This document shows, in pieces, positions 21,520-33,933 of a stretch of 64,000 nucleotides of DNA (the first letter of the stretch is position 1; each line of letters begins with the position of its first letter). A program made the position numbers and the translations under genes. Location of the stretch: NCBI RefSeq assembly GCF_055900595.2, contig NZ_CM148325.1. One strand, 5' to 3'. The notes under the pieces were generated by a model. It did not search any database, had not been told where the DNA came from, and saw only the letters and a list, made by a program, of their open reading frames with translations.

Positions 21520-22383
21520 CTATTTTTTATGATAATCAACAATATCATGAATAATTATTTCATTTTCTGTTTCAGAATATAAAACTCTATCTCCCCCTCT
21601 TCCTTTACCACTTCCTGGTAAGTCGGCTGCTGATTTCCCTTTTAAATCACCATGTAAAGAATGCTGGTTTTTTCCTGACTCACCACGAGAAAGCATAATT
21701 TTAATAGCATCATAGGCTTCAGCTTGTTTTCCTTTGAGCGCATCCCCCTTCTTCGCCGCCAAATCCTCCTCTATGATGGTTTTCATTTGGGTAGGACATT
21801 TTTCACCTGCCAGCCCCCACGGGTCGCACCAACCCACCGGATTATGCACATAAGACTGCGTATCCAGCCCGCCGCTCAGTTTCAGCGGATCCTGGCTTAA
21901 ATACTGCCCCGTCCCGGCGTCGTAGTAGCGGTGTAAATTATACCACAGCCCGCTCTCCTCATCCTGCCACTGGCCCATGAAGCCCGCATCGCAGCTTTCA
22001 CGCTCACTGTCCGGCGAGTCGTTTGCAGCCAGCCCCCACAGGCTGCGGTGTTTCGTCCACACCTTCCGCCCGTTCGCGCAGTACATCTCCTGCGGCGCGC
22101 CGTCCGGGCCGGTCACTACCGGGTAAAAATAACTTCTGTCATCATTCGCCGCCCGGCTTTCCTTCGCCAGCAGTTCAAATCTGCCCCCGGTAGTGCCACT
22201 GCTCCCGTAGCGCCGGGCTGCCGTCTGCATAGCGTTTCTCACTTGTGGAAAGCGCCATCCCAAGCCACTGGTAGCGTACTTCGCTGATGGCGTGCGGGCT
22301 TCGTTTCCACGCTGCCCGGATAACGCAGCGTTTTGCCGTTCGTCTGCCAAAGGCGTCGTAGCTGTACTGCCACACTTCACCAT
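21520..22383 (-). CDS. rhs: Rhs C-terminal segment: end of Rhs core (DPxGL motif) plus YoeB/RelE-like toxin domain; out of frame with the upstream Rhs ORF
   Basis: Contains GLWYNLHRYYDAGTGQYLSQDPLKLSGGLDTQSYVHNPVGWCDPWGL (Rhs core end) followed by ~95 aa ending ...GKGRGGDRVLYSETENEIIIHDIVDYHKK resembling YoeB/RelE toxins; overlaps the main Rhs ORF in another frame over 22175-22383. Confidence 0.7.
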   Translation of the reverse strand: MVKCGSTATTPLADERQNAALSGQRGNEARTPSAKYATSGLGWRFPQVRNAMQTAARRYGSSGTTGGRFELLAKESRAANDDRSYFYPVVTGPDGAPQEMYCANGRKVWTKHRSLWGLAANDSPDSERESCDAGFMGQWQDEESGLWYNLHRYYDAGTGQYLSQDPLKLSGGLDTQSYVHNPVGWCDPWGLAGEKCPTQMKTIIEEDLAAKKGDALKGKQAEAYDAIKIMLSRGESGKNQHSLHGDLKGKSAADLPGSGKGRGGDRVLYSETENEIIIHDIVDYHKK

Positions 22384-25300
22384 CTGGTGTCTTTATCTCG
22401 CGCAGACGGTCGAAGTCATCCCAGCGGTAGCGCCACTCCTGCGGGCGAAAGCCGAGTTTTTGGTCGGTGCGCTTTGTCACCCTGCCGCAGGCGTCGTATC
22501 CGTAGCGGCTGTCACCGGCCTGGTTCACACATTCATTATTGTACTGGTGCTGCGACAGAATACCGTTTATCCGGCTTTCCGCTATCTGCTCATTGACCGT
22601 ATAGCGGTAGCGCTCTTCCTGTGCCGGACCACTGGCGTCCAGCCGCAGTACGCTGGTTATCTGGTCGCGGGCATCGTACTGGTAGCGCGTTTCCCGCTCC
22701 GTACGCGTTTTCGACCACACTTCATGCCCGGTCAGGCGGCCCGATTTATCCCACGCGTAACGGTGTTCGCCCAGCGGTCGCCACGATGCCACGCTCTGGT
22801 GGCTGCCTGCCAGCCGCTCTGCGCCCTGTTTTTGCCATGCCGTACGTCCGCAGGTGTCGTATCCCTGCTCCTGCATATAGACCGCATGGTTCAGCGGCGT
22901 CTGCGCCAGCCAGCTTTCCTCATCCTCCGGGCGGTAACGCCGATTTTTTTCAAGGCCCGCGGGGGAATGACTGAAGTCCATCCGGTGACCGTTGCTGCGG
23001 TAGCCCGTCAGAATGCCCGAAGCGTCGTATTCTCTCTGTGTTTCCCCGTCCGGCGTTGTGGTGCCAGTCAGCCTTCCGGCTTCGTCGTAACGGTACTCCG
23101 TGCGCTGGCCGTCCTGCTCTTCCGCCACCAGACGATGGCGTTCGTCCCACTCCAGTTTTACCTCACTGGTGAGCGTATAGCCTGCTTCACTGCCGTCGCT
23201 GCGCTCATACACCTGCGCACTCACCATCCGGTCATGGCGGTCGTACTGATAGCTGAGTTTCTGATGCTCGCCGCTGATGGTCGCCACCCGGCCATATTCA
23301 TCCCTCGCATAGCGCCATACGCTGCCGTCCGGGCGGTGTTTTTCTGCCAGCCGGCCCTGTTCATCACGGATATAGACGGTTCTGCGTCCCGACCAGTCCT
23401 CCTCCCCGGCCATCTGGCCCGCCGCATCGTAGTACAGCCGCCACTGCTGGTTGCCGCTGCGCGTAAGCTGCGTGAGCCTTGCGGCACCATCGTAGTCGCA
23501 AAGTATCCGCTGCCCGCCCGCGTCCTCCACTTCCCGCAGCAGGTCAAATGCCCCGTGGCGGTAGCGCGTGGTCTGGCCCATGGCCCCGGTGTGGAGAGTG
23601 ATTTTGCCTTCACCATCATAGCGGAAGGTTTCAGCGCCACCGTCGGCCCGGATTACTGCGCTCAGTTTCTCATGCGGGTTATCGGCACCGGGGCGGTACT
23701 GCCAGTTCACGCTGCGCCCTTCAGCATCCACCAGCCCCGTCAGCCGCAGCCAGCGGTCTTCCGTGTAATGGGTTGTGCGGCCTTCACCATCGGTATGGGA
23801 AAGCAGGCCACCGTGAGCGCTGTAGCTCCACTGTTCGTGGCTGCCGTCCGGGTACTGTATCTCCTTGAGCAGACCGTCTTCGGTATGACGGTACTGCCAG
23901 TTCTGCCCGTTCACCTCCCGGCGGATAAGATTCCCTTCGGCGTTATAATGGTACGCCGCCGTGGTGCGGTGGTCCTGGTATGCCGTAACCTGACCAAATT
24001 CATCCCACTGCCATTCACGTTTACGCCCGTTCTCGTCCGTTTCGCTCAGGATACGCCCGGCATAATCGCGTTTTATCTGAGTAATGCGCCCACCCGGCTG
24101 GCGAATACACAGCGGCTGGTCGTATTCGTTACGCTCCCATTCAGTGATACGCCCCAGCGGGTCACGCTGTTTTTTCAGCAGCCAGGACTCATCGAACCAC
24201 AGCGTGGTGGTGGCTCCGGTGGCATCGGTGTAATCGGTTCTGCGCTCCTCCGGGAAGTAGCGGAAGGTGTCGTTATACAGGCCTTCCTGTGTGCCTGTGG
24301 CAGTCACCCGGCCTTCATCGTCATAGCGCAGGTGGAAGTGCGTCGGGCCGTTGTCGCGCCAGGAACTCAGCCAGCCCTGTTCGGTATAGGTATAATGCAA
24401 CGCGCCATTAAAGCGGGTCTGCACATCGCTCAGTCGCTGTTCATCGCCGTGACTGATATAGTCATAGCGCACCAGCTCGCTGCCGTCTGACTCGTCGATC
24501 ACACGGAATATCTGCCCCTGCGGGCCACACATCACCCGCAGATTCAGGCCGCTGCTGTGGGTTACGTTTGTCAGTTGGCCGATGACGTTATAGGTGAAGC
24601 GAATTTCGTTGCGGTTGCGGTCTTTTATTGCCGTTAGCCGCAGGCGGCGTGCGCCGGGGGAGATGGGCGTAAAGATATAACCCAATTGTGAGTATTCGTC
24701 GAAGATAATAGCCCGCTCACGGTTTCCCAGGAGGCGATAGTGCGGGACAAGCAGGTTACGGCTACTGTATGGTGCCTGCTCCGTGGAGTAGGCCAGACAT
24801 AGCCCCTCAGCATCAAAGTAGGTGACGTTTTTCCCGTTGCAATCGAACTCCAGAAACTGCGACCAGTTACACAACCAGCGACTGCCCAGCAAACCACTAA
24901 CCGGATGTCGGCCTGTATAAGCACGTTTCAGCGTCAGCGGTAAAATATGCGGATAGTTGAAATCAGTTCGGTAATCCAGATATTCACCCGTTCCGGTATC
25001 CACCGGATCGCTGAACCCCTGACTGATACGCTCATTTGCGGCTCTGTTTAACTGCTTTGCTCCCCATAGAGCTGTTAACACTTCCAGACTTGATACAACA
25101 GATTGCTCCAGCACCGTCATATCGGCATTAATCGGCCCATACTGTCCGGTCGTCTTATCAGCCGTAATGGTTTTACATCCTTCCTGAATAACTGCCGAGC
25201 AGGTAATTTTATGGCCCTTACGCGCCAGCGGCAGGCTGTTGACGGAAATAATTTTGCTCCCTTCCACTATCTGTGGAGGAGGACTGCCCGGATCCTTACT

Positions 25301-25942
25301 ACATTCAACCGGATCAGTGACGCGAGCTACCGCTTTTCCTTCAAAAAAAACATTAGGAGAGCCTTCTACAATCTGTCCGGTTTCAGATGCCCAGCGGGAA
25401 CCAATTACCATCGCTGCGCCACCGACAAATCCACCAGCTAATCCCCCGGCCCCGGCAGCAACGGTGGCAGCCAGCACACCCAATGCCGCGCCCCCTGTAG
25501 CGACAACCAGAGCTCCCACTGCAATCCCTACAATAAGTCCACCGATTAACCCACCAATAGCACCCAGAAAGGAATTGTTATGAACAATGTGATGACCCAC
25601 ACACGCAGGTATATCTGTTGGGCCGGAAACTGCGTGATCTTTACCCCAGGTATCCATGAACCAGTCACCTGCTTTGGTGCCCAGCCATCCCCCCAGCATC
25701 CCGCCAACCAGTCCGGCAATCAAAGGGCCTCCAAATCCTGCAACAGCTTTGGCTATTCCGGCTGCACAGGTGTTTGCTGCTGCGGCTGCCAGTCCTACCT
25801 TTGCCGTTGCTCCCACCATACTGACAGCCATTATTCCAGTACTGGCAATATGTCCTGTGGTAGCAATACTCTCCACTGTTTCGGCATTACTGTCCCGTTG
25901 ATCCAGCTCCGCTAACTTCTCCTGCGCGCTTTTTTCCGTCAT
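22175..25942 (-). CDS. rhs: prePAAR-TMD-PAAR-Rhs T6SS effector, main ORF (YD-repeat shell)
   Basis: 1255-aa ORF: N-terminal region with Gly-rich transmembrane helices and PAAR-like segment (GSPNVFFEGKAVARVTDPVEC), then many YD repeats; stop at 22175 where another frame continues. Confidence 0.8.
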   Translation of the reverse strand: MTEKSAQEKLAELDQRDSNAETVESIATTGHIASTGIMAVSMVGATAKVGLAAAAANTCAAGIAKAVAGFGGPLIAGLVGGMLGGWLGTKAGDWFMDTWGKDHAVSGPTDIPACVGHHIVHNNSFLGAIGGLIGGLIVGIAVGALVVATGGAALGVLAATVAAGAGGLAGGFVGGAAMVIGSRWASETGQIVEGSPNVFFEGKAVARVTDPVECSKDPGSPPPQIVEGSKIISVNSLPLARKGHKITCSAVIQEGCKTITADKTTGQYGPINADMTVLEQSVVSSLEVLTALWGAKQLNRAANERISQGFSDPVDTGTGEYLDYRTDFNYPHILPLTLKRAYTGRHPVSGLLGSRWLCNWSQFLEFDCNGKNVTYFDAEGLCLAYSTEQAPYSSRNLLVPHYRLLGNRERAIIFDEYSQLGYIFTPISPGARRLRLTAIKDRNRNEIRFTYNVIGQLTNVTHSSGLNLRVMCGPQGQIFRVIDESDGSELVRYDYISHGDEQRLSDVQTRFNGALHYTYTEQGWLSSWRDNGPTHFHLRYDDEGRVTATGTQEGLYNDTFRYFPEERRTDYTDATGATTTLWFDESWLLKKQRDPLGRITEWERNEYDQPLCIRQPGGRITQIKRDYAGRILSETDENGRKREWQWDEFGQVTAYQDHRTTAAYHYNAEGNLIRREVNGQNWQYRHTEDGLLKEIQYPDGSHEQWSYSAHGGLLSHTDGEGRTTHYTEDRWLRLTGLVDAEGRSVNWQYRPGADNPHEKLSAVIRADGGAETFRYDGEGKITLHTGAMGQTTRYRHGAFDLLREVEDAGGQRILCDYDGAARLTQLTRSGNQQWRLYYDAAGQMAGEEDWSGRRTVYIRDEQGRLAEKHRPDGSVWRYARDEYGRVATISGEHQKLSYQYDRHDRMVSAQVYERSDGSEAGYTLTSEVKLEWDERHRLVAEEQDGQRTEYRYDEAGRLTGTTTPDGETQREYDASGILTGYRSNGHRMDFSHSPAGLEKNRRYRPEDEESWLAQTPLNHAVYMQEQGYDTCGRTAWQKQGAERLAGSHQSVASWRPLGEHRYAWDKSGRLTGHEVWSKTRTERETRYQYDARDQITSVLRLDASGPAQEERYRYTVNEQIAESRINGILSQHQYNNECVNQAGDSRYGYDACGRVTKRTDQKLGFRPQEWRYRWDDFDRLREIKTPDGEVWQYSYDAFGRRTAKRCVIRAAWKRSPHAISEVRYQWLGMALSTSEKRYADGSPALREQWHYRGQI

Positions 25943-26436: not shown

Positions 26437-28656
26437 TTACTGTGGATTTAGCGCCAGATGGGTGGGTCCATCGAGGGTGATAGTGCCGTCTGAATTCATA
26501 ACAAGAGTGCTTTTTCCGACAGTCAACTTTATCTGCGTTGCTGCGGTAAGGTGTATCGCCCCGGTTTTTGACGTGATGGTGATATTCCCTTCTACCGTCT
26601 CCGTGCAGGTTCCCGTTTCTACCGTCACCTCGCGTTTACCCGTTTTCACCGTCAGAGACTGGTCGCCTTCCGTTACGGTAATATTCCGGTTGCCTTTGAT
26701 GGTTTCGGTATGCTTACCATCAACAAATTCCGTGCGGTCGATTTTTACCGTGGATGTTTCGTTATGAATGATGGTTTTCGTCCGATCTGCCTTTACCGTG
26801 TGTGTTTCGTTATTTTTCACGACGGTATTCAGATCTTTCTCCGCAAGAAACCTCACTTCTTCCGCCCCCGTTTTATCGTCAAAGCGCAGCATGTTTCCGT
26901 TGGTCGCCCCCCCCTGTAACGAGTGGCTGAATATCCCGCTCTGCGACGCCATGCCCGGTAGCCCCCACGGCGGCATGGTGTCCTGGTTGTAGGTGCGCCC
27001 CACGATAATCGGTAGATCCGGGTCGCCATTTTTGAAATCCACCAGCACTTCCTGGCCGATGCGCGGGATCTGGATCATGCCGAATCCTTTACCCGCCCAC
27101 GGATAGCTGACGCGGATCCAGCAGGAGCTGTTTTCGTCATTATTACCGTAACGATCCCAGCCAAACTGCACCTTCACCCGGCCATATTTATCCGTCCAGA
27201 TTTCCTGCCCTACCGGGCCGGTGACGATGGCGCTCTGCGGGCCTTTGGTGTGGGGTTTGCTCAGGGTTCGTTGTGGGCGGTAAACTTCGCGGGTGGGATG
27301 CAGTTCAAACGTGGTGACATAGGTAAAATGCTGATCCTGGCCGCTGTGCTGCGCGTTGTCCCGTAAAAACAGCGTGGTTTGTACCAACAGATATTCCTGA
27401 TTAATTTCTGCCGTCGGGTGATTCATCAACGTAAAGGTGTACCCGGTCATGAGGGTACGGATATGACCGGCCCCATGTGCCCGGCTGCCGGGGCTGCGCT
27501 GCGCTTCCATACGAATGCGCGTCAGCATCTCACCTTCGCCCGTAGTGAAGTAATCACCAGGCCATTCATAATGCTCATATTCAGCATGACCGGTATTACG
27601 CGGACTAGCCACGGTACTTTTAAGCAGCGAACGAGGCTTCATAAAATCAAAATCGTCCATCACCCACTTTCCAGTACGCAGTCTCTCACTGGCCGTAATG
27701 GTGTGGATAAATTCTTTGTCCAGTTTCAGCCCTTCCTGGTGCCACTCCACCAGTGGCGAGTCAGGGCACGCTTTATGACCATTGATGGCATCCGTCAGCA
27801 CCAGCGTATGGCAGTTCTCGCTGTGCTCAAACCACCAGTAGATTCCCCACTCCTGCATCAGGCGCTGGATGAAATCGAAGTCGGTTTCACCATACTGCAC
27901 CTGCCAGACGCGGGGTGGATAATTTTCCACCAGCCGCTTTTCCACCGGAAAGGAATATTCATCCAGTACTTCATCGAGAATATCCACCACGGTTTTGTTC
28001 TGGAACGCTTTGTAGTCGCTGGTATGGGTCAGCAGCTTCAGCCATGGCTCAATGCGTAATTCATACGTTACCGAACGGCCCTCATGGCCGACCACCCTCG
28101 CCGCCGTCACCAGCCCGCTGATATACCGTTTTCCGCCACCGTCCAGTTCGATACTGACGCACAGGTCTTTGCCTACCATGGGCTGAAGCGGCAGGTTGGC
28201 CGCGGGGGAAACGTATCCCAGGTTCAGGGCGTCCGGCGTTTTAAGCTGTACTGTGTAGGAAAACAGATTCCCAAGCCCTTCCGAACCATTCATGCCTGCG
28301 AACAGCAGCATCTGCGGCGGCACCGAACCACCACTTACTGTGACGTTATGCGCCCCCGGACCACCGGCTGCAAGCGACGCCGCCGCATCCTGAACTGCAC
28401 CAGCCATATCCGATATCCCTGCTGCTGCGGCGGCGGCTTGCGCAGCGGCTACTGCGGCTTTAACCAGACCTGACGGTTCCGGCAACGCACCAAACAGGTC
28501 CGCCACTGCCTGTTCTGCCATCTGCTCGGCGGCATCAGCTACATCGGTTGCGGCTGAACCTGTGCTCATACTGCCACTTTCGCCAGCTATTGGTGGTGTG
28601 GTGATGACGGGTCCACCGTTTCCAACTGGTTTATTACCCGTAGATACAAAACTCAT
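26437..28656 (-). CDS. vgrG: T6SS spike protein VgrG (TssI) with ~110-aa Ala/Gly-rich N-terminal extension
   Basis: 739-aa ORF with gp27/gp5-like regions (e.g. [15 protein letters not shown]) and C-terminal beta-helix repeats; canonical VgrG N-terminus begins after residue ~110. Confidence 0.9.
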
Positions 28657-28680
28657 GATATTTGCTCCTTTAATACCGGA

Positions 28681-29067
28681 TTAAAATCTAGCCCCTGGTG
28701 GCCAAAAAATATAAGTAATCACTCTCCATTGCCCGTCTTTATAATGAAACCAACATGTCAGATTCAAATCCCCCTGCAAATTCCAGAACATTTCCTTAAT
28801 AGGAACATTTTGAAATTCAGGATCTGTTATGCGATAAGTTTGATTCAAGCCGATATAATACTCACCAACAAATTTATATCGTGGCCTCACGAACTCATGA
28901 GCAGGCGGCCCATATTTCTTCATAAAAAAGATGTCATTACTTCCATCATGTATATCATTTTCTTCATAATATTTGGTGGATTGAGCAACTGCAGAAGGCG
29001 AGAAAACATTCACTGTAGTTATGTAAGTTATTGAAAGGAAAATCACTATAATACAGAAAAATTTCAT
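28681..29067 (-). CDS. Putative periplasmic immunity protein for the adjacent HExxH effector
   Basis: 128-aa ORF with N-terminal signal-like hydrophobic segment; overlaps effector stop; C-terminal half conserved with the paralog at 30776-31147 (PIKEMFW..GDLNLTC.FHYKDGQWRVI.Y.FWPPGA.F). Confidence 0.6.
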   Translation of the reverse strand: MKFFCIIVIFLSITYITTVNVFSPSAVAQSTKYYEENDIHDGSNDIFFMKKYGPPAHEFVRPRYKFVGEYYIGLNQTYRITDPEFQNVPIKEMFWNLQGDLNLTCWFHYKDGQWRVITYIFWPPGARF

Positions 29068-29765
29068 TTGGTTACATTCAATAAAGTAAATTTAGTTTCA
29101 GGCATTATGACATTCAACGTTATAGTTGCGTTTTTAAGGTATCGTTCCCGAAGCTCCATTCCCACATTCATCAACCCACTAATATCTCCAACATACGGAG
29201 ACGAAGAATCATAATCATCATCTAAGTAACCAAGTACATGTCCGGCTTCATGAGGTATATTTACTTGCAACGTATTATTACAGTTAATACATTTCGCTAC
29301 TTTTTCCAGGTCCGCTGAATCAACATGAACCGTACTGTTTTTAAAATCAACATATGTTCTTAAATCAGCACCAGGCAAAACCTTTGTTGCAATAACCAAC
29401 CAGTCTTCATTCTGAGATGCAGAAATTATTCTTACATCAAAAGGCAAAGCTTTACCCTGAAATTTTTTAGCGAACTCAGATTCACCGGAAACAGAATAAG
29501 TTATTTTCCCATTCCATGCCTGCTGAACAGATAAATATATCGCTCGCATAAAAATAGCTTTTTCCCATATAATCCAGTCATCTGTAACGGTATTATCTTT
29601 ATACCACTCATACTTCCATCTTATCACAGCCGTAATCGAACCAGTATTTTGATTTAATAAATACGTCCTCCTACCATCCTTATGTATAATGATATCGCCA
29701 TCAATATTTGTTTTTTCATAGTATTCGGCCAGCAAACTATTCTCATCATATTTAAGCTTGGTCAT
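29064..29765 (-). CDS. Putative T6SS effector with HExxH zinc-metallopeptidase-like motif
   Basis: 233-aa ORF, no signal peptide, contains NIPHEAGHVLGY; followed by overlapping signal-peptide ORF; sits between vgrG copies. Confidence 0.6.
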   Translation of the reverse strand: MTKLKYDENSLLAEYYEKTNIDGDIIIHKDGRRTYLLNQNTGSITAVIRWKYEWYKDNTVTDDWIIWEKAIFMRAIYLSVQQAWNGKITYSVSGESEFAKKFQGKALPFDVRIISASQNEDWLVIATKVLPGADLRTYVDFKNSTVHVDSADLEKVAKCINCNNTLQVNIPHEAGHVLGYLDDDYDSSSPYVGDISGLMNVGMELRERYLKNATITLNVIMPETKFTLLNVTK

Positions 29766-29831
29766 TTTACTCTCATTAAATACTAATTGTTTGTATCGAA
29801 AATATTATCTGGAAAAATATTATTTTATATA

Positions 29832-30751
29832 TTACGAGTATTGCCCCTTCAGCCGCAGCGCATCCACATACCGTCCTTCACTGCAGGGCAAGATTACGAA
29901 AGCCCGCCCCGCAAGGACTGACGCGAGGTAGTTTCTGTCCATGGCTGCTTTTATCATCTTACGTCTTAACCCTGCCTTGGTTTCGCCGTACTGCACCTGC
30001 CAGGCGCGGGGTGGATAATTTTCCACCAGCCGCTTTTCCACCGGAAAGGAATATTCATCCAGTACTTCATCGAGAATATCCACCACGGTTTTGTTCTGGA
30101 ACGCTTTGTAGTCGCTGGTATGGGTCAGCAGCTTCAGCCATGGCTCAATGCGTAATTCATACGTTACCGAACGGCCCTCATGGCCGACCACCCTCGCCGC
30201 CGTCACCAGCCCGCTGATATACCGTTTTCCGCCACCGTCCAGTTCGATACTGACGCACAGGTCTTTGCCTACCATGGGCTGAAGCGGCAGGTTGGCGGCG
30301 AGGGAGACATATCCGAGGTTCAGGGTGTCCGGGGTTTTAAGCTGTACTATGTAGGAAAACAGGTTTCCAAGCCCTTCCGAACCATTCATGCCTGCAAACA
30401 AAAGCAGCTGCGGCGGCACCGCACTACCACTTACTGTGACGTTATGCCCCCCGGACCACCGGCAGCAAGCGACGCCGCCGCATCCTGAACTGCACCAGCC
30501 ATATCCGAGATCCCTGCTGCGGCGGCTGCGGCTTGCGCAGCAGCTACTGCGGCTTTAACCAGACCTGACGGTTCCGGCAACGCACCAAACAGGTCCGCCG
30601 CGGCCTGTTCTGCCATCTGCTCGGCTGCATCAGCTACATCGGTTGCGGCTGAACTGGCGCTTACAGCACTACTTTCTCCGGCTATCGGTGGCGTGGAGAT
30701 AGCTGGCCCACCGTTACTGCCAGATTTATTACCCGTAGATACAAAACTCAT
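29832..30751 (-). pseudogene. vgrG: Truncated, frameshifted vgrG duplicate fused to H-repeat and tagF 3' remnants
   Basis: Two ORFs (30431-30751 and 29832-30419) match the first ~270 aa of the full vgrG; frame broken at a C-run near 30445-30455; 3' end reads ...[24 protein letters not shown] (H-repeat protein C-terminus) then ...[10 protein letters not shown] (tagF C-terminus). Confidence 0.75.
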
Positions 30752-30775
30752 GATATTTATTCCTTTAATATCGGA

Positions 30776-31147
30776 TTAAAATTTTGCGCCCGGCGGCCAG
30801 AAAAAATAAGAAATAACCCGCCACTGTCCATCTTTATAATGAAAAAAACATGTCAGATTTAAATCCCCCCGCAAATGCCAAAACATTTCTTTGATGGGGA
30901 TATTTCTGAATTCAGGATTCGTTGAGCGATAGACATTTTCAATCTCTATATAATACTCACCGACTAATTTATAACGAGGCTTTATAAATTCATACGCTGG
31001 CTGACCATAGTTATTTAATAGAACATTCTCTTCAACTCCATTATACACACCACTCGCATTCAGATAAGCATACCCAGGAATATCAGACATGCTATTTTTC
31101 GCCCCACCCACTATCAAAAAAATAATCACAGCGTATATTAGTTTCAT
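30776..31147 (-). CDS. Putative periplasmic immunity protein (paralog of 28681-29067)
   Basis: 123-aa ORF with N-terminal hydrophobic signal-like segment; C-terminal half conserved with the other immunity paralog. Confidence 0.6.
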   Translation of the reverse strand: MKLIYAVIIFLIVGGAKNSMSDIPGYAYLNASGVYNGVEENVLLNNYGQPAYEFIKPRYKLVGEYYIEIENVYRSTNPEFRNIPIKEMFWHLRGDLNLTCFFHYKDGQWRVISYFFWPPGAKF

Positions 31148-31160
31148 TTTTTTACGCTTT

Positions 31161-31882
31161 TCACAAAAAATTAGAACCCGGAACCATTCTATTTAACCGC
31201 TCAATGACATTTCCCATATAACGAGAGCGCAGTTCCATACCAATATTCATTAACGCACTGGCATCCCCGGAGAATGGTGTAGTTGCTTTATCTGCATCAT
31301 CACTATAGTATTCATCGGTAAGATATCCAATAATATGCCCAAGCTCATGAGACAGCCCCATTTGCTTAGAGCAAACTTTTGATGAACCAAGACATTTAGC
31401 TGCTGCAACTATATCTTTAGAGTCAAGTTCAACGTATCGACTATTCCAGACAATGGAACTCTGACGAAAACTATTTGGATCATCATTATCAATTTTAAAC
31501 ACCACCACATCCCAATACCCATGACGATCAGTCTGAATTATTTCTATTGTGAAAGATAAATCCTTACCATTAAACTTACTGACAAACTCAGACTTCCCAG
31601 AAACGGATAAAAAAACCTTATTATTCCATGTTTGATTAATGACAAAAATAACTTTTCCATGAAAGGCTTTTTTTCCATATCTGTCCAATCAGTTTTTGCA
31701 TCCCATCTTTTTATCCAATTATATTTCCATCTCAGCAACAATGAGATTGCACCATTTTCACGGTCAATTCTTAAATCTCCCCAGGCATCATTGTCCCTGA
31801 TATATCGTTTATCCAGCATTAAGTCGTCATAAGCATCGTATGCCTGCTGAATAGCCTCATCATGAGAGTCACCCATGTTCAC
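31161..31882 (-). pseudogene. HExxH-motif putative effector, paralog of 29064-29765, apparently frameshifted
   Basis: Two overlapping ORFs (31544-31882 N-terminal part, 31161-31688 C-terminal part with HELGHIIGY and LMNIGMELRSRY); frame break near a T/A homopolymer at ~31660-31690. Confidence 0.6.
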
Positions 31883-32068
31883 CTCCTTATATTGCTATAT
31901 ATCCAATAAACCTGAAGATGCTTGCTTACCCACCAACGCAGACGGGACCAAGGGTAGCCTGAAGTCAACAGATAGCAATCAACTTGAAGTTCATGGGGAT
32001 ATTTGTTTCCCCATCTACACGTTTATCGTCATATTTTTGTATAGCTATTCTCAGCATTCGTGGGTAGA

Positions 32069-32190
32069 TTATTTTTTTTCCAACCGCAGCGCATCCACAT
32101 ACCGCCCCTCGCTGTTCTGCTGCCACAACCAGCCCAGCCCCTGCTGCGCCTGCGTTAACATTTTTGCTAGCCAGCACGGTCACGGCAGGC
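32069..32190. repeat. Remnant of tagF 3' end
   Basis: Minus-strand reading gives [26 protein letters not shown], matching the C-terminus of the intact TagF at 33163-33260 ([31 protein letters not shown]). Confidence 0.75.
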
Positions 32191-32206
32191 AATTCTATGA
32201 CAGGTA

Positions 32207-32680
32207 CTACTCATCCGTACAACCCAGCCCCCGGCGCTGAACCACTTCACTGGCAAACGTAGCTCCGGTTTTTTTCATTATTCCTTTTTGTATTTTTTGC
32301 AGCGCGGGAAATGAGATTCTCCTGCATGAATCCTCTTCCCATATATCACCAGTTACAGGGCTAACTGAAAATAGTCCCCACACATCTGTCGCTCCGGCGG
32401 AAGGAGAATCATAACCTACCCCAAAACTAAAATACCCAGGATGATACAGGTTACCTTTTTTATCTTTCAGAGAACCGTCAAGAAAAAACCCAGACAATTC
32501 CACATTATATTTTTCATTTTTTAGTGAAAAAACCAATAATGCCTGCGCCTGTATTTCAGTAAGACCTGACTGGTTAACAGTCGTTAGATCAAACCGCGGC
32601 ACATTCCTGATAAGAATTTCAGCACAACAATTCACGGACACGACCATGAAAAGCAATACTGATATTAATTTACAGGACAT
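32207..32680 (-). CDS. Putative periplasmic immunity protein for the adjacent GH73-like effector
   Basis: 157-aa ORF with signal-like N-terminus MSCKLISVLLFMVVSVNCCA; overlaps effector stop. Confidence 0.5.
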   Translation of the reverse strand: MSCKLISVLLFMVVSVNCCAEILIRNVPRFDLTTVNQSGLTEIQAQALLVFSLKNEKYNVELSGFFLDGSLKDKKGNLYHPGYFSFGVGYDSPSAGATDVWGLFSVSPVTGDIWEEDSCRRISFPALQKIQKGIMKKTGATFASEVVQRRGLGCTDE

Positions 32681-33135
32681 GTTATTCTCCGCTTAACCAT
32701 ATTAATCACCCCCACTAACTCACTAGCATAACCGGTATGGCCGCCATTACTGTTTTTACCTGAATTAAAACCAGAATCAATCAATGCCTGCGCAAATTGC
32801 TCCGGAGATTTTTTATTTCTGACCGCATTACCAAATCGGATTGCAAAGGACTTTCCGCTAGTTGAAAAAGAGGTATAAGTGGCAACCCACACTTGATTAC
32901 TCCCCAGCGGGTGAACCTGTCCTGACTGTAAAGGTGCCGGACCATGCATGGAAAAGTAGTTATTGTATTCTGTCGCGATTCTACCCTGCCCGTAAAAGGA
33001 CTCCTTTGCAGCAAGCCCCAGGATATTTTCCACAGGCACATCAAGTTGCTTAGCGATTAATTCACATTCTTTCAGATATTGCTGTACAAACCTGACTGCA
33101 CCAGTGTTATTACAGGCTTTATCATAAGACCCCAT
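32665..33135 (-). CDS. Putative T6SS glycoside-hydrolase effector (GH73/FlgJ-like glucosaminidase motif)
   Basis: 156-aa ORF without signal peptide; LGLAAKESFYGQGRIATEYNNYFSMHG resembles the GH73 catalytic-Glu region (A-x-E-S-x-x-G ... NN-x-F-G) as remembered; directly downstream of tagF. Confidence 0.5.
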   Translation of the reverse strand: MGSYDKACNNTGAVRFVQQYLKECELIAKQLDVPVENILGLAAKESFYGQGRIATEYNNYFSMHGPAPLQSGQVHPLGSNQVWVATYTSFSTSGKSFAIRFGNAVRNKKSPEQFAQALIDSGFNSGKNSNGGHTGYASELVGVINMVKRRITCPVN

Positions 33136-33162
33136 GATTCACTACTCCTTGTCTGATTATTT

Positions 33163-33933
33163 TTAATGCGGCCGGATATCCAGCCGCAACGCATCCACAT
33201 ACCGCCCCTCGCTGTTCTGCTGCCAGAACCAGCCCTGCCCCTGCTGCGCCTGCGTCAGCATTTTGTCCGGCCAGCCCGGCCACGGCAGGTGGCGCACACC
33301 GGGCAGTTCCACTACCGGCACGTCCGGCAGGCCGGTGAGTTCCCGGCTACGCTGCGGTACACGTCGTAAGCCGCGTAGCCACTGCGCCCAGCGCGGCCCC
33401 GGTCGCCACATCGCCCAGAGCTGGTCTGTCTGCTCCGCCAGTCGACCGCAGCGTTCTGTCTGTGGTGAGACATGAGCTGCCGTCAACTGCGCCAGCCAGT
33501 ACAGCCAGCCCTGTGTGTCATCCAGGCTCTCTTCCAGCCATTCCCGCCCGACACGCTGGTAAATCACCAGTGGCCACGGCCTGCCCGTACTGTCACGCGA
33601 GGCGGTCAGCACCCCGGTCAGCCACTCATCGCGCCCGCCAATGGGGAGAAATCCCGGCGACAGCACAAAACTCCACGGCAATGGGTGGTGCTCCGGTAGT
33701 GCCGTTTTCTCACGTGGTGACAGGTGCATCCAGCCGTCATTTGTTCCGGCCTTCTCGGCATCCGCGCCGTCCGGCACCACGATATGCCGCCCCTGTCCCA
33801 GCCACGTCTGCTGGTTCAGCCACGCCTGCCACACCTGCCCTTCGTTCGCGCTCACCCGCCAGCGCACGTAGTCCCGCTGGTCCGGCAGTCTGCCGAACAT
33901 CGCCGGAGCCGATACCTCTGCCCGGCGCATCAC
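33163..33933 (-). CDS. tagF: T6SS-associated protein TagF
   Basis: 256-aa ORF translationally coupled to the tssM stop (ATGA overlap); region PWSFVLSPGFLPIGGRDEWLTGVLTASRDSTGRPWPLVIY resembles TagF as remembered. Confidence 0.7.
   Translation of the reverse strand: MMRRAEVSAPAMFGRLPDQRDYVRWRVSANEGQVWQAWLNQQTWLGQGRHIVVPDGADAEKAGTNDGWMHLSPREKTALPEHHPLPWSFVLSPGFLPIGGRDEWLTGVLTASRDSTGRPWPLVIYQRVGREWLEESLDDTQGWLYWLAQLTAAHVSPQTERCGRLAEQTDQLWAMWRPGPRWAQWLRGLRRVPQRSRELTGLPDVPVVELPGVRHLPWPGWPDKMLTQAQQGQGWFWQQNSEGRYVDALRLDIRPH

Follow-up and report, generated by a model that had tools for sequence, protein, structure and literature searches.

Salmonella uses its SPI-6-type T6SS in gut colonisation. 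The VgrG of this system in S. Typhimurium, VgrS (SPI-6 VgrG, STM0289 / SL1344_0284), is an ortholog of the protein studied here and has been described at the structural level. According to a 2025 preprint (bioRxiv 10.1101/2024.12.20.629533), full-length VgrS was insoluble; the authors removed residues 1-80, termed "a region of predicted disorder". The tail-less protein folds and trimerises. It shows an unusually wide cup and a domain-swapped open base that was judged incompatible with Hcp binding, and no binding of Hcp2 was observed in vitro (same preprint). The respective structure, PDB 9mlp, covers VgrS residues 81-729 and is the closest solved structure to our query. Neither the preprint nor the Salmonella T6SS reviews that we searched assign a function to the tail.

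Other solved VgrGs, i.e., P. aeruginosa VgrG1 (4mtk, 4uhv, 6h3l), P. protegens VgrG1 (7q5p), E. coli c3393 (2p5z) and EAEC VgrG (6sjl), have the hub, the OB domain and the beta-helix in common with our protein (E from 1e-121 to 1e-21). None of them shows a comparable N-terminal tail, since their chains have only 1-34 residues before the aligned point. Evolved VgrGs, e.g., V. cholerae VgrG1-ACD, do carry extensions, and these are C-terminal, folded and enzymatic. The VgrG-pyocin of Salmonella SPI-21 likewise has an extra segment fused to the VgrG core, but again at the C-terminus. In contrast, the tail described below lies at the N-terminus, has low complexity and could be assigned neither to a family nor to a confident fold; that is, the recognisable folded effector or effector-binding domain that defines an evolved or specialised VgrG was not found in it.

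Our literature search for VgrG N-terminal extensions returned, beside the VgrS preprint and unrelated uses of the phrase, one case only. Francisella IglG, a PAAR-like protein of the T6SS spike complex, has a lineage-specific N-terminal extension (PMC5014421). IglG is a different protein (PAAR-like, at the tip) whose extension has no sequence relationship to the VgrG tail.

The window, i.e., the whole 64,000-nt stretch of contig NZ_CM148325.1 (GCF_055900595.2) that was analysed, is an E. coli-type chromosome segment with a T6SS cluster between tRNA-Asp (aspV) and yafV. A RefSeq locus of 98% identity (E. coli R32_14_1F) is annotated with a tssA-like gene and tssB, C, E, F, G, H, J, K, L and M as well as with hcp, tagF, tagJ, tagK, vgrG, a DcrB/Eag-type chaperone and a PAAR-Rhs toxin. 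Judged by this locus, T6SS core genes surround vgrG, which is the genomic context expected of a VgrG/TssI. The encoded protein belongs to this family also by its domains, since all three Pfam domains and TIGR03361 (551 bits vs. a cut-off of 186) score above their curated cut-offs. The coordinates of all features are given in Table 1.

Table 1. Features of the vgrG gene, its product and its truncated second copy (nucleotide positions refer to the window, aa to residues of VgrG).
Feature	Position	Strand	Basis and remarks
vgrG	26437-28656	minus	ORF, 739 aa, VgrG spike protein
Shine-Dalgarno site of vgrG	28661..28670	minus	AAAGGAGCAA; AAGGAG core, 7 nt spacing to the ATG (28656-28654)
VgrG N-terminal extension, codons 1-100	28357..28656	minus	no family match; motifs invariant in orthologs
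Hinge and first canonical VgrG segment, aa 101-114	28315..28356	minus	homology to other VgrGs starts here
Canonical VgrG body	26437..28314	minus	Pfam, TIGR03361, PDB 9mlp (E=0)
gp27-like hub (Phage_GPD)	aa 126-434		Pfam E=2.9e-100
OB domain (Phage_base_V)	aa 488-556		Pfam 7e-14
gp5-like beta-helix (Gp5_trimer_C)	aa 573-680		Pfam 2.2e-26; followed by a short C-terminal part
Extension of second vgrG copy	30431-30751	minus	106-aa ORF; 1-bp deletion at codon 102, stop 5 codons later
Remainder of second vgrG copy, to vgrG nt 773	29979..30430	minus	blastn vs. vgrG alleles and tagF; direct repeats D1, D2

A sequence-only reading of the window had proposed that the canonical VgrG N-terminus is preceded by an Ala/Gly-rich extension at 28330-28656, i.e., codons 1-109. 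We confirm that about 100 residues come before it and place the extra part at residues 1 to ~100 (28357-28656). This follows from several sources: the first Pfam domain starts at residue 126, TIGR03361 matches from residue 112, and the alignments to solved VgrG structures begin at query residues 99-120. Only the alignment to PDB 9mlp starts earlier, namely at query residue 90.

Within residues 1-111, Ala makes up 26%, Gly 14% and Ser 10%; there is no Arg and only 2 Lys, and the net charge is -7. While the segment is thus rich in Ala and Gly as had been proposed, a supposed richness in acidic residues does not hold, with D+E at 8% vs. 12% in the core. The segment is instead depleted in basic residues. 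The first 35 residues form a head rich in Gly, Ser, Thr and Pro. Alignment of 12-25 orthologs reveals conserved islands within an otherwise variable background, namely MSFVSTxNK (residues 1-9), TTPPI (19-23), AAExxxEQA (42-50), a 16-residue motif at 54-69, QD (89-90) and the segment 99-114, each of which is invariant or nearly so.

AlphaFold2 places low-confidence helices in the Ala-rich segments aa 38-56, 64-78 and 86-96 when run on residues 1-142, where the pLDDT of ~45 can be read as helical propensity only and no confident fold emerges. A prediction of full-length VgrG was discarded, with a mean pLDDT of 36.6 and poor values even in the core; the underlying alignment of 25 sequences was too shallow. 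The maximum 19-residue Kyte-Doolittle mean within the extension is 1.49 and does not reach the value commonly taken to indicate a transmembrane segment. The combination of low complexity, a weakly predicted fold and short invariant motifs looks like the pattern expected of a flexible region that binds partners via linear motifs.

The extension is already annotated and noted in VgrS and is hence not new as a sequence feature. VgrS is ~82% identical over its full length, and its extension is 62-68% identical to that of E. coli and shows the same motifs. Further Salmonella sequences of the SPI-6 type, both fragments and full-length proteins, align from residue 1 onwards with 60-86% identity. Salmonella Q81 corresponds to the QD motif that aligns with Q89-D90 of the E. 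coli protein, i.e., the segment that was removed from VgrS is exactly this tail. The synteny is shared as well, with tagF upstream and the DcrB/Eag chaperone and PAAR-Rhs genes downstream. VgrS differs in the length of its Ala tract and in the head sequence (in-frame indels), and the genes between tagF and vgrG are not the same, as Salmonella has an unrelated 279-aa gene there. The extra truncated vgrG copy of the E. coli locus is not part of the VgrS locus.

We also assessed how far the extension is distributed. Its DNA was found in 144/5426 complete E. coli genomes and, where complete, always within an annotated Vgr CDS. In Salmonella, Citrobacter and Escherichia, VgrGs of 723-748 aa align over their full length (98-100% coverage, 80-91% identity). 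The long form is very common in Salmonella enterica, for which a single exact sequence accounts for 5093 indexed blocks of the collection, and is also present in Citrobacter koseri, C. amalonaticus, Enterobacter sp. and E. ruysiae; the loci of C. amalonaticus and Enterobacter sp. match residues 1-309.

Outside of this VgrG family, phmmer detected no homologs of residues 1-111 among 1.84 billion representatives. A word-indexed search of a set of 5.8 billion proteins, both with the single sequence and with a 12-sequence profile, returned the same VgrG family only. Comparisons with Pfam, NCBIfam and PDB sequences gave no match to the extension, nor did it resemble any other protein encoded in the 64-kb window. 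A match to P0083, a repetitive protein of 487 aa, was rejected as resulting from low complexity. Among the PHROGs, the best match was phrog_3336, which is not significant (E=0.17, 11 bits); the phage tail tape-measure identity that it would imply found no support in a tblastn search of 50,697 phage records, which yielded two short unannotated records only, both matching vgrG itself.

Judged by these searches, the tail is an appendage specific to one family, confined to the VgrGs of Escherichia, Salmonella, Citrobacter and Enterobacter. The sequence-only reading had called an N-terminal extension unusual for a VgrG. This stands insofar as the named specialised VgrG domains in the T6SS papers searched are C-terminal. 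It fails insofar as the extension is no oddity of one locus but the norm for the whole SPI-6/aspV-type VgrG family, in which RefSeq annotates it from the same start.

To what extent the segment is translated can be judged from its start region and from its pattern of substitutions. The Shine-Dalgarno (SD) site lies 24 nt beyond the stop codon of the upstream gene, as read from the sequence. We compared eight orthologs, which represent four genera; three are from E. coli and one each from Escherichia sp. E1V33, E. ruysiae, Citrobacter amalonaticus, Enterobacter sp. and Salmonella enterica. The arrangement AAGGAG/AAGGAA-N7-ATG at codon 1 is kept in 8/8 of them; Salmonella retains both SD and ATG though its upstream gene is unrelated. 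RefSeq (PGAP) annotates the identical start in all three E. coli genomes inspected. Internal in-frame ATG, GTG or TTG codons (30, 46, 51, 58, 84, 112, 116 and 122), on the other hand, have no comparable SD, and M84 and M116 are not conserved among the orthologs. A short isoform from an internal start was therefore rejected, since neither a conserved start codon nor an SD could be found for it.

The annotated frame is the only one that is free of stops in all 8 orthologs. When the 333 nt are shuffled, just 1.25% of the resulting sequences are open. Gaps between orthologs reflect differences in the length of the Ala tract, and the downstream reading frame is kept in every case. Variable sites are distributed 41/37/76 over codon positions 1/2/3 (88 ungapped codons, 8 orthologs). 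For cross-genus pairs, dS is ~1 or higher and the frame of the extension is still open. Nei-Gojobori estimates of dN/dS range from 0.08 to 0.32 for the extension vs. 0.04 to 0.12 for residues 101-425, with medians of 0.26 (residues 1-35), 0.15 (residues 36-100) and 0.07 (core). That is, the extension shows 2-4 times the core value and is under weaker constraint.

Given these observations, the extension is coding and predicted to be translated from the ATG at 28656. The earlier view that it is coding and not 5' UTR is thus borne out by the SD/ATG conservation, dN/dS, the third-position bias and the openness of the annotated frame, which goes beyond chance and holds across orthologs; the duplicated copy, which had been put forward in its favour, is not the best evidence.

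Taking the above into account, we consider it probable that the segment is the genuine translated N-terminus of the main-cluster VgrG of an aspV-island (SPI-6-like) T6SS and serves as a flexible, motif-bearing assembly tail. Translation would begin at the ATG behind its own SD and would yield ~100 residues ahead of the gp27-like hub. These residues would form a flexible, acidic, Ala/Gly-rich tail of helical propensity that is broken by a few invariant short motifs. We infer that the tail joins the first strand of the gp27-like hub, which would place three copies of it at that base of the spike trimer which faces Hcp. There, the short motifs may contact a T6SS-internal partner during assembly. 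Contact might be made with the first Hcp ring or within its lumen, inside the hollow cup of gp27, or with baseplate/TssA components. Assembly, rather than action as a toxin or membrane anchor, is most likely the role of the tail.

An orphan paralog provides a natural comparison. E. coli encodes an orphan VgrG of 664 aa that starts with MSFTATDYPSGALVGSGTHNVTLSG, does without ~83 tail residues and resumes homology at GSGTHNVTLSGSAVP, such that 19 residues precede HNVT vs. 102 in the long form. With 81% identity in the hub (residues 99-309), it falls into the same clade, and it also has the MSF start and the GxGxHNVTxSGSAVP segment. Its gene is part of a vgrG-eagR-rhs island near ansP/yncE, outside the main T6SS cluster, and is followed by genes for a DcrB/Eag chaperone and Rhs. 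The orphan is present in 225/5426 E. coli genomes, including VCSW7, which also carries the long form. Since a paralog without the tail exists in the same genomes, a VgrG of this clade can exist without it, and basic spike function does not depend on it.

The window also contains a second vgrG copy, which had been said to keep the extension in frame. With regard to the extension itself this is correct, since its ORF is open and 89% identical to that of copy 1 over the extension. It is, however, no longer joined to a core: at codon 102, a G run has lost 1 bp (GGGGGCGCAT -> GGGGGGCAT), and the resulting frameshift splits the extension from the core, which is itself truncated. According to blastn, the remainder of copy 2 is followed by a short 3' fragment of tagF. 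RefSeq labels the equivalent copy in E. coli R32_14_1F as frameshifted and incomplete.

Over the first 300 nt, copies 1 and 2 show 32 differences, which fall into 13 synonymous and 11 non-synonymous codons, i.e., the pattern is not strongly synonymous. The first 180 nt of copy 2 match E. coli VCSW7 at 59-60 of 60 positions per block. Together with its upstream 400 nt, copy 2 matches the VCSW7 allele and its upstream region at 95-97%, the upstream 400 nt alone at 97%; copy 1, again taken together with the upstream region, resembles Escherichia sp. E1V33 (95%). Judged from these matches, copy 2 is a pseudogene remnant of a different allele and not one maintained by selection; it was left behind when a second effector cassette was stacked together with a vgrG 5' end. 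As an argument for coding the duplicate is hence weak: being a remnant of another allele, it offers no independent evidence of selection on the tail.

These data relate directly to a further reading, which we regard as possible but tentative. It states that the duplicated vgrG 5' end and its DNA-level conservation reflect a homology arm for the swapping of cassettes between tagF and vgrG, without protein selection on copy 2. The cassettes are indeed flanked by 3' fragments of tagF and a 5' fragment of vgrG, the allele matches of the two copies are split between VCSW7 and E1V33 as given above, and identity within vgrG is mosaic, with dS=0 in the head vs. 0.26-0.47 downstream. A homology arm does not account for the protein-level constraint on the intact gene across genera, though. 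It thus complements the assembly-tail explanation and is no alternative to it, as it explains the existence of copy 2 and why the in-frame argument is weak.

The assembly-tail explanation can be taken one step further, which we put forward as a rather doubtful idea: the tail may fold back into the wide gp27 cup or reach into the first Hcp ring and thereby govern both the switch of the hub from open to closed and the onset of Hcp tube assembly. If so, the removal of residues 1-80 would be the cause of the domain-swapped open base in the crystal structure of tail-less VgrS and of the missing Hcp2 binding, and the family would represent an N-terminally specialised class of VgrGs with a built-in assembly regulator or lumen plug. 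The data on tail-less VgrS would be compatible with a role of the tail in hub closure or Hcp docking.

That the extension is instead an N-terminal effector or specialisation domain, i.e., a toxin, a membrane-active peptide or a dock for the small HExxH effectors encoded upstream, is in our view unlikely. The idea itself is reasonable, as add-ons of VgrGs are usually effector or effector-loading modules and effector/immunity-like cassettes are located directly upstream. Furthermore, the first 35 residues co-segregate with the cassette allele, which is explained by linkage and recombination. The Ala/Gly-rich helices superficially resemble small-xxx-small packing motifs. Hydropathy stays short of transmembrane values, and Q, D and E occur in the segment. 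Neither an enzymatic or toxin family nor a confident fold was matched. The idea is also opposed by the conservation of the tail across genera with wholly different upstream cassettes (in Salmonella, the unrelated 279-aa gene). Moreover, the tail-less orphan vgrG also has an upstream HExxH + lipoprotein pair, i.e., upstream cassettes do not track the tail.

Two related candidates were discarded. Regions of the prePAAR/TMD type are hydrophobic transmembrane helices bound by an Eag chaperone, and the prePAAR motif, reportedly described by Ahmad et al. 2020, is AARxxDxxxH; the tail has no Arg, its sole His is in the HNVT segment, and its hydropathy peaks at the 1.49 given above. A signal peptide or transmembrane anchor was rejected on account of composition and hydropathy.

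That the start is mis-annotated, i.e., that the true start is GTG codon 112 or ATG 84/116 and the upstream frame a leader or a chance ORF in GC-rich DNA, is highly improbable: while an ORF finder picks the GTG (codon 112) in the truncated copy, richness in Ala codons lowers the stop frequency (1.25% of shuffles are open) and VgrS without residues 1-80 folds and trimerises (bioRxiv 10.1101/2024.12.20.629533), the SD is conserved at codon 1 only with poor internal sites and unconserved M84 and M116, stop codons are absent from the frame in 8 orthologs, which also show dN/dS of 0.08-0.32 and a third-position bias, the motifs are invariant at the protein level, and a start at codon 112 would cut the HNVTVSG strand, which aligns with solved VgrGs.

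The main spike of the SPI-6-type T6SS carries ~100 conserved residues under purifying selection. The sole structure of an SPI-6-type spike was solved without this tail and shows an atypical open base that is incompatible with Hcp. If the tail acts in hub closure or in the nucleation of the Hcp tube, it would be relevant to the initiation of tube assembly at the spike.

Within the Ala/Gly-rich N-terminal extension of vgrG we observe a recombination mosaic on the minus strand, which separates 28552-28656 from 28357-28551 (comparison loci L004 and L014). The first 35 codons show a dS of 0, i.e., their synonymous sites are the same as in Escherichia sp. E1V33 and E. ruysiae, whereas for the rest of vgrG the dS is 0.26-0.47. 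The head of the extension co-segregates with the upstream cassette allele. The extension also differs in base composition: in the window (28357-28656, minus strand) and its orthologs, third-position GC is 0.34-0.55 compared to 0.61-0.73 for the rest of vgrG, and it is clearly lower in the extension for all eight orthologs (8/8). A repeat-avoiding choice of Ala codons could account for this, as could weak mRNA structure near the start. The Ala tract itself varies in length in frame, both in the truncated vgrG copy (about 30555) and in the Salmonella proteins P0040 and P0053. For the truncated copy, the tract differs by 21 nt between the window and the E. coli strain R32_14_1F, while AAAAGMAQ units are duplicated or deleted among the Salmonella variants. 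These length changes suggest that the GCN-rich tract undergoes slippage.

The PAAR-Rhs gene (21520-25942), which lies downstream of the Eag chaperone, is broken into two overlapping ORFs by the insertion of one nucleotide near 22188, as seen in comparison with the RefSeq locus that is 98% identical. The homology between the two loci stops at about 21815, such that the C-terminal toxin differs from the one encoded there. In a number of E. coli genomes (H36-H40, one of which is NZ_AP021896.1), vgrG is reduced to its first 71 nt, which are joined directly to the C-terminal part of an Rhs gene; in the resulting protein P0073, the sequence after the junction begins with AITGRGESQKIWYYHTDL. This fusion is the scar of a deletion across vgrG, eag and most of rhs. 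The extension sequence is also present in two phage-labelled records of a phage collection, OR851151.1 and OR845378.1. Both are very short (2.7-2.9 kb) and carry no annotation, and they look like host chromosomal fragments rather than phage genes.

The interval between tagF and vgrG (28657-33160, minus strand) holds effector cassettes in a stacked array, whose members are listed in the table together with the PAAR-Rhs ORFs.

Members of the tagF-vgrG array, in order from tagF, and ORFs of the PAAR-Rhs gene
Feature	Position	Strand	Remark
Glucosaminidase-domain protein	32665-33135	minus	
Partner of glucosaminidase-domain protein	32207-32680	minus	157 aa
tagF 3' fragment	32079-32189	minus	89% identity to 33179-33289
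HExxH gene	31161-31882	minus	
Signal-peptide protein	30776-31147	minus	123 aa; paired with HExxH gene 31161-31882
Truncated vgrG		minus	
Another short tagF 3' fragment		minus	follows truncated vgrG
HExxH gene	29064-29765	minus	233 aa
Signal-peptide protein	28681-29067	minus	128 aa; paired with 233-aa HExxH gene
Intact vgrG		minus	last member, after the 233-aa/128-aa pair
PAAR-Rhs ORF	22175-25942	minus	
PAAR-Rhs ORF	21520-22383	minus	

The two HExxH proteins are paralogs with the motifs HEAGHVLGY and HELGHIIGY, and each is followed by its small signal-peptide protein. Together with these partners, they look like zinc-metallopeptidase effector/immunity pairs. However, neither paralog has a match in NCBIfam, and the 233-aa protein has none in Pfam. 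Compared to R32_14_1F, the copy nearer to tagF is frameshifted in the window by 1-nt deletions near 31675 and 31171.

Given its layout, the tagF-vgrG interval suggests that cassettes are exchanged by recombination, with the 3' end of tagF and the 5' end of vgrG serving as homology arms.
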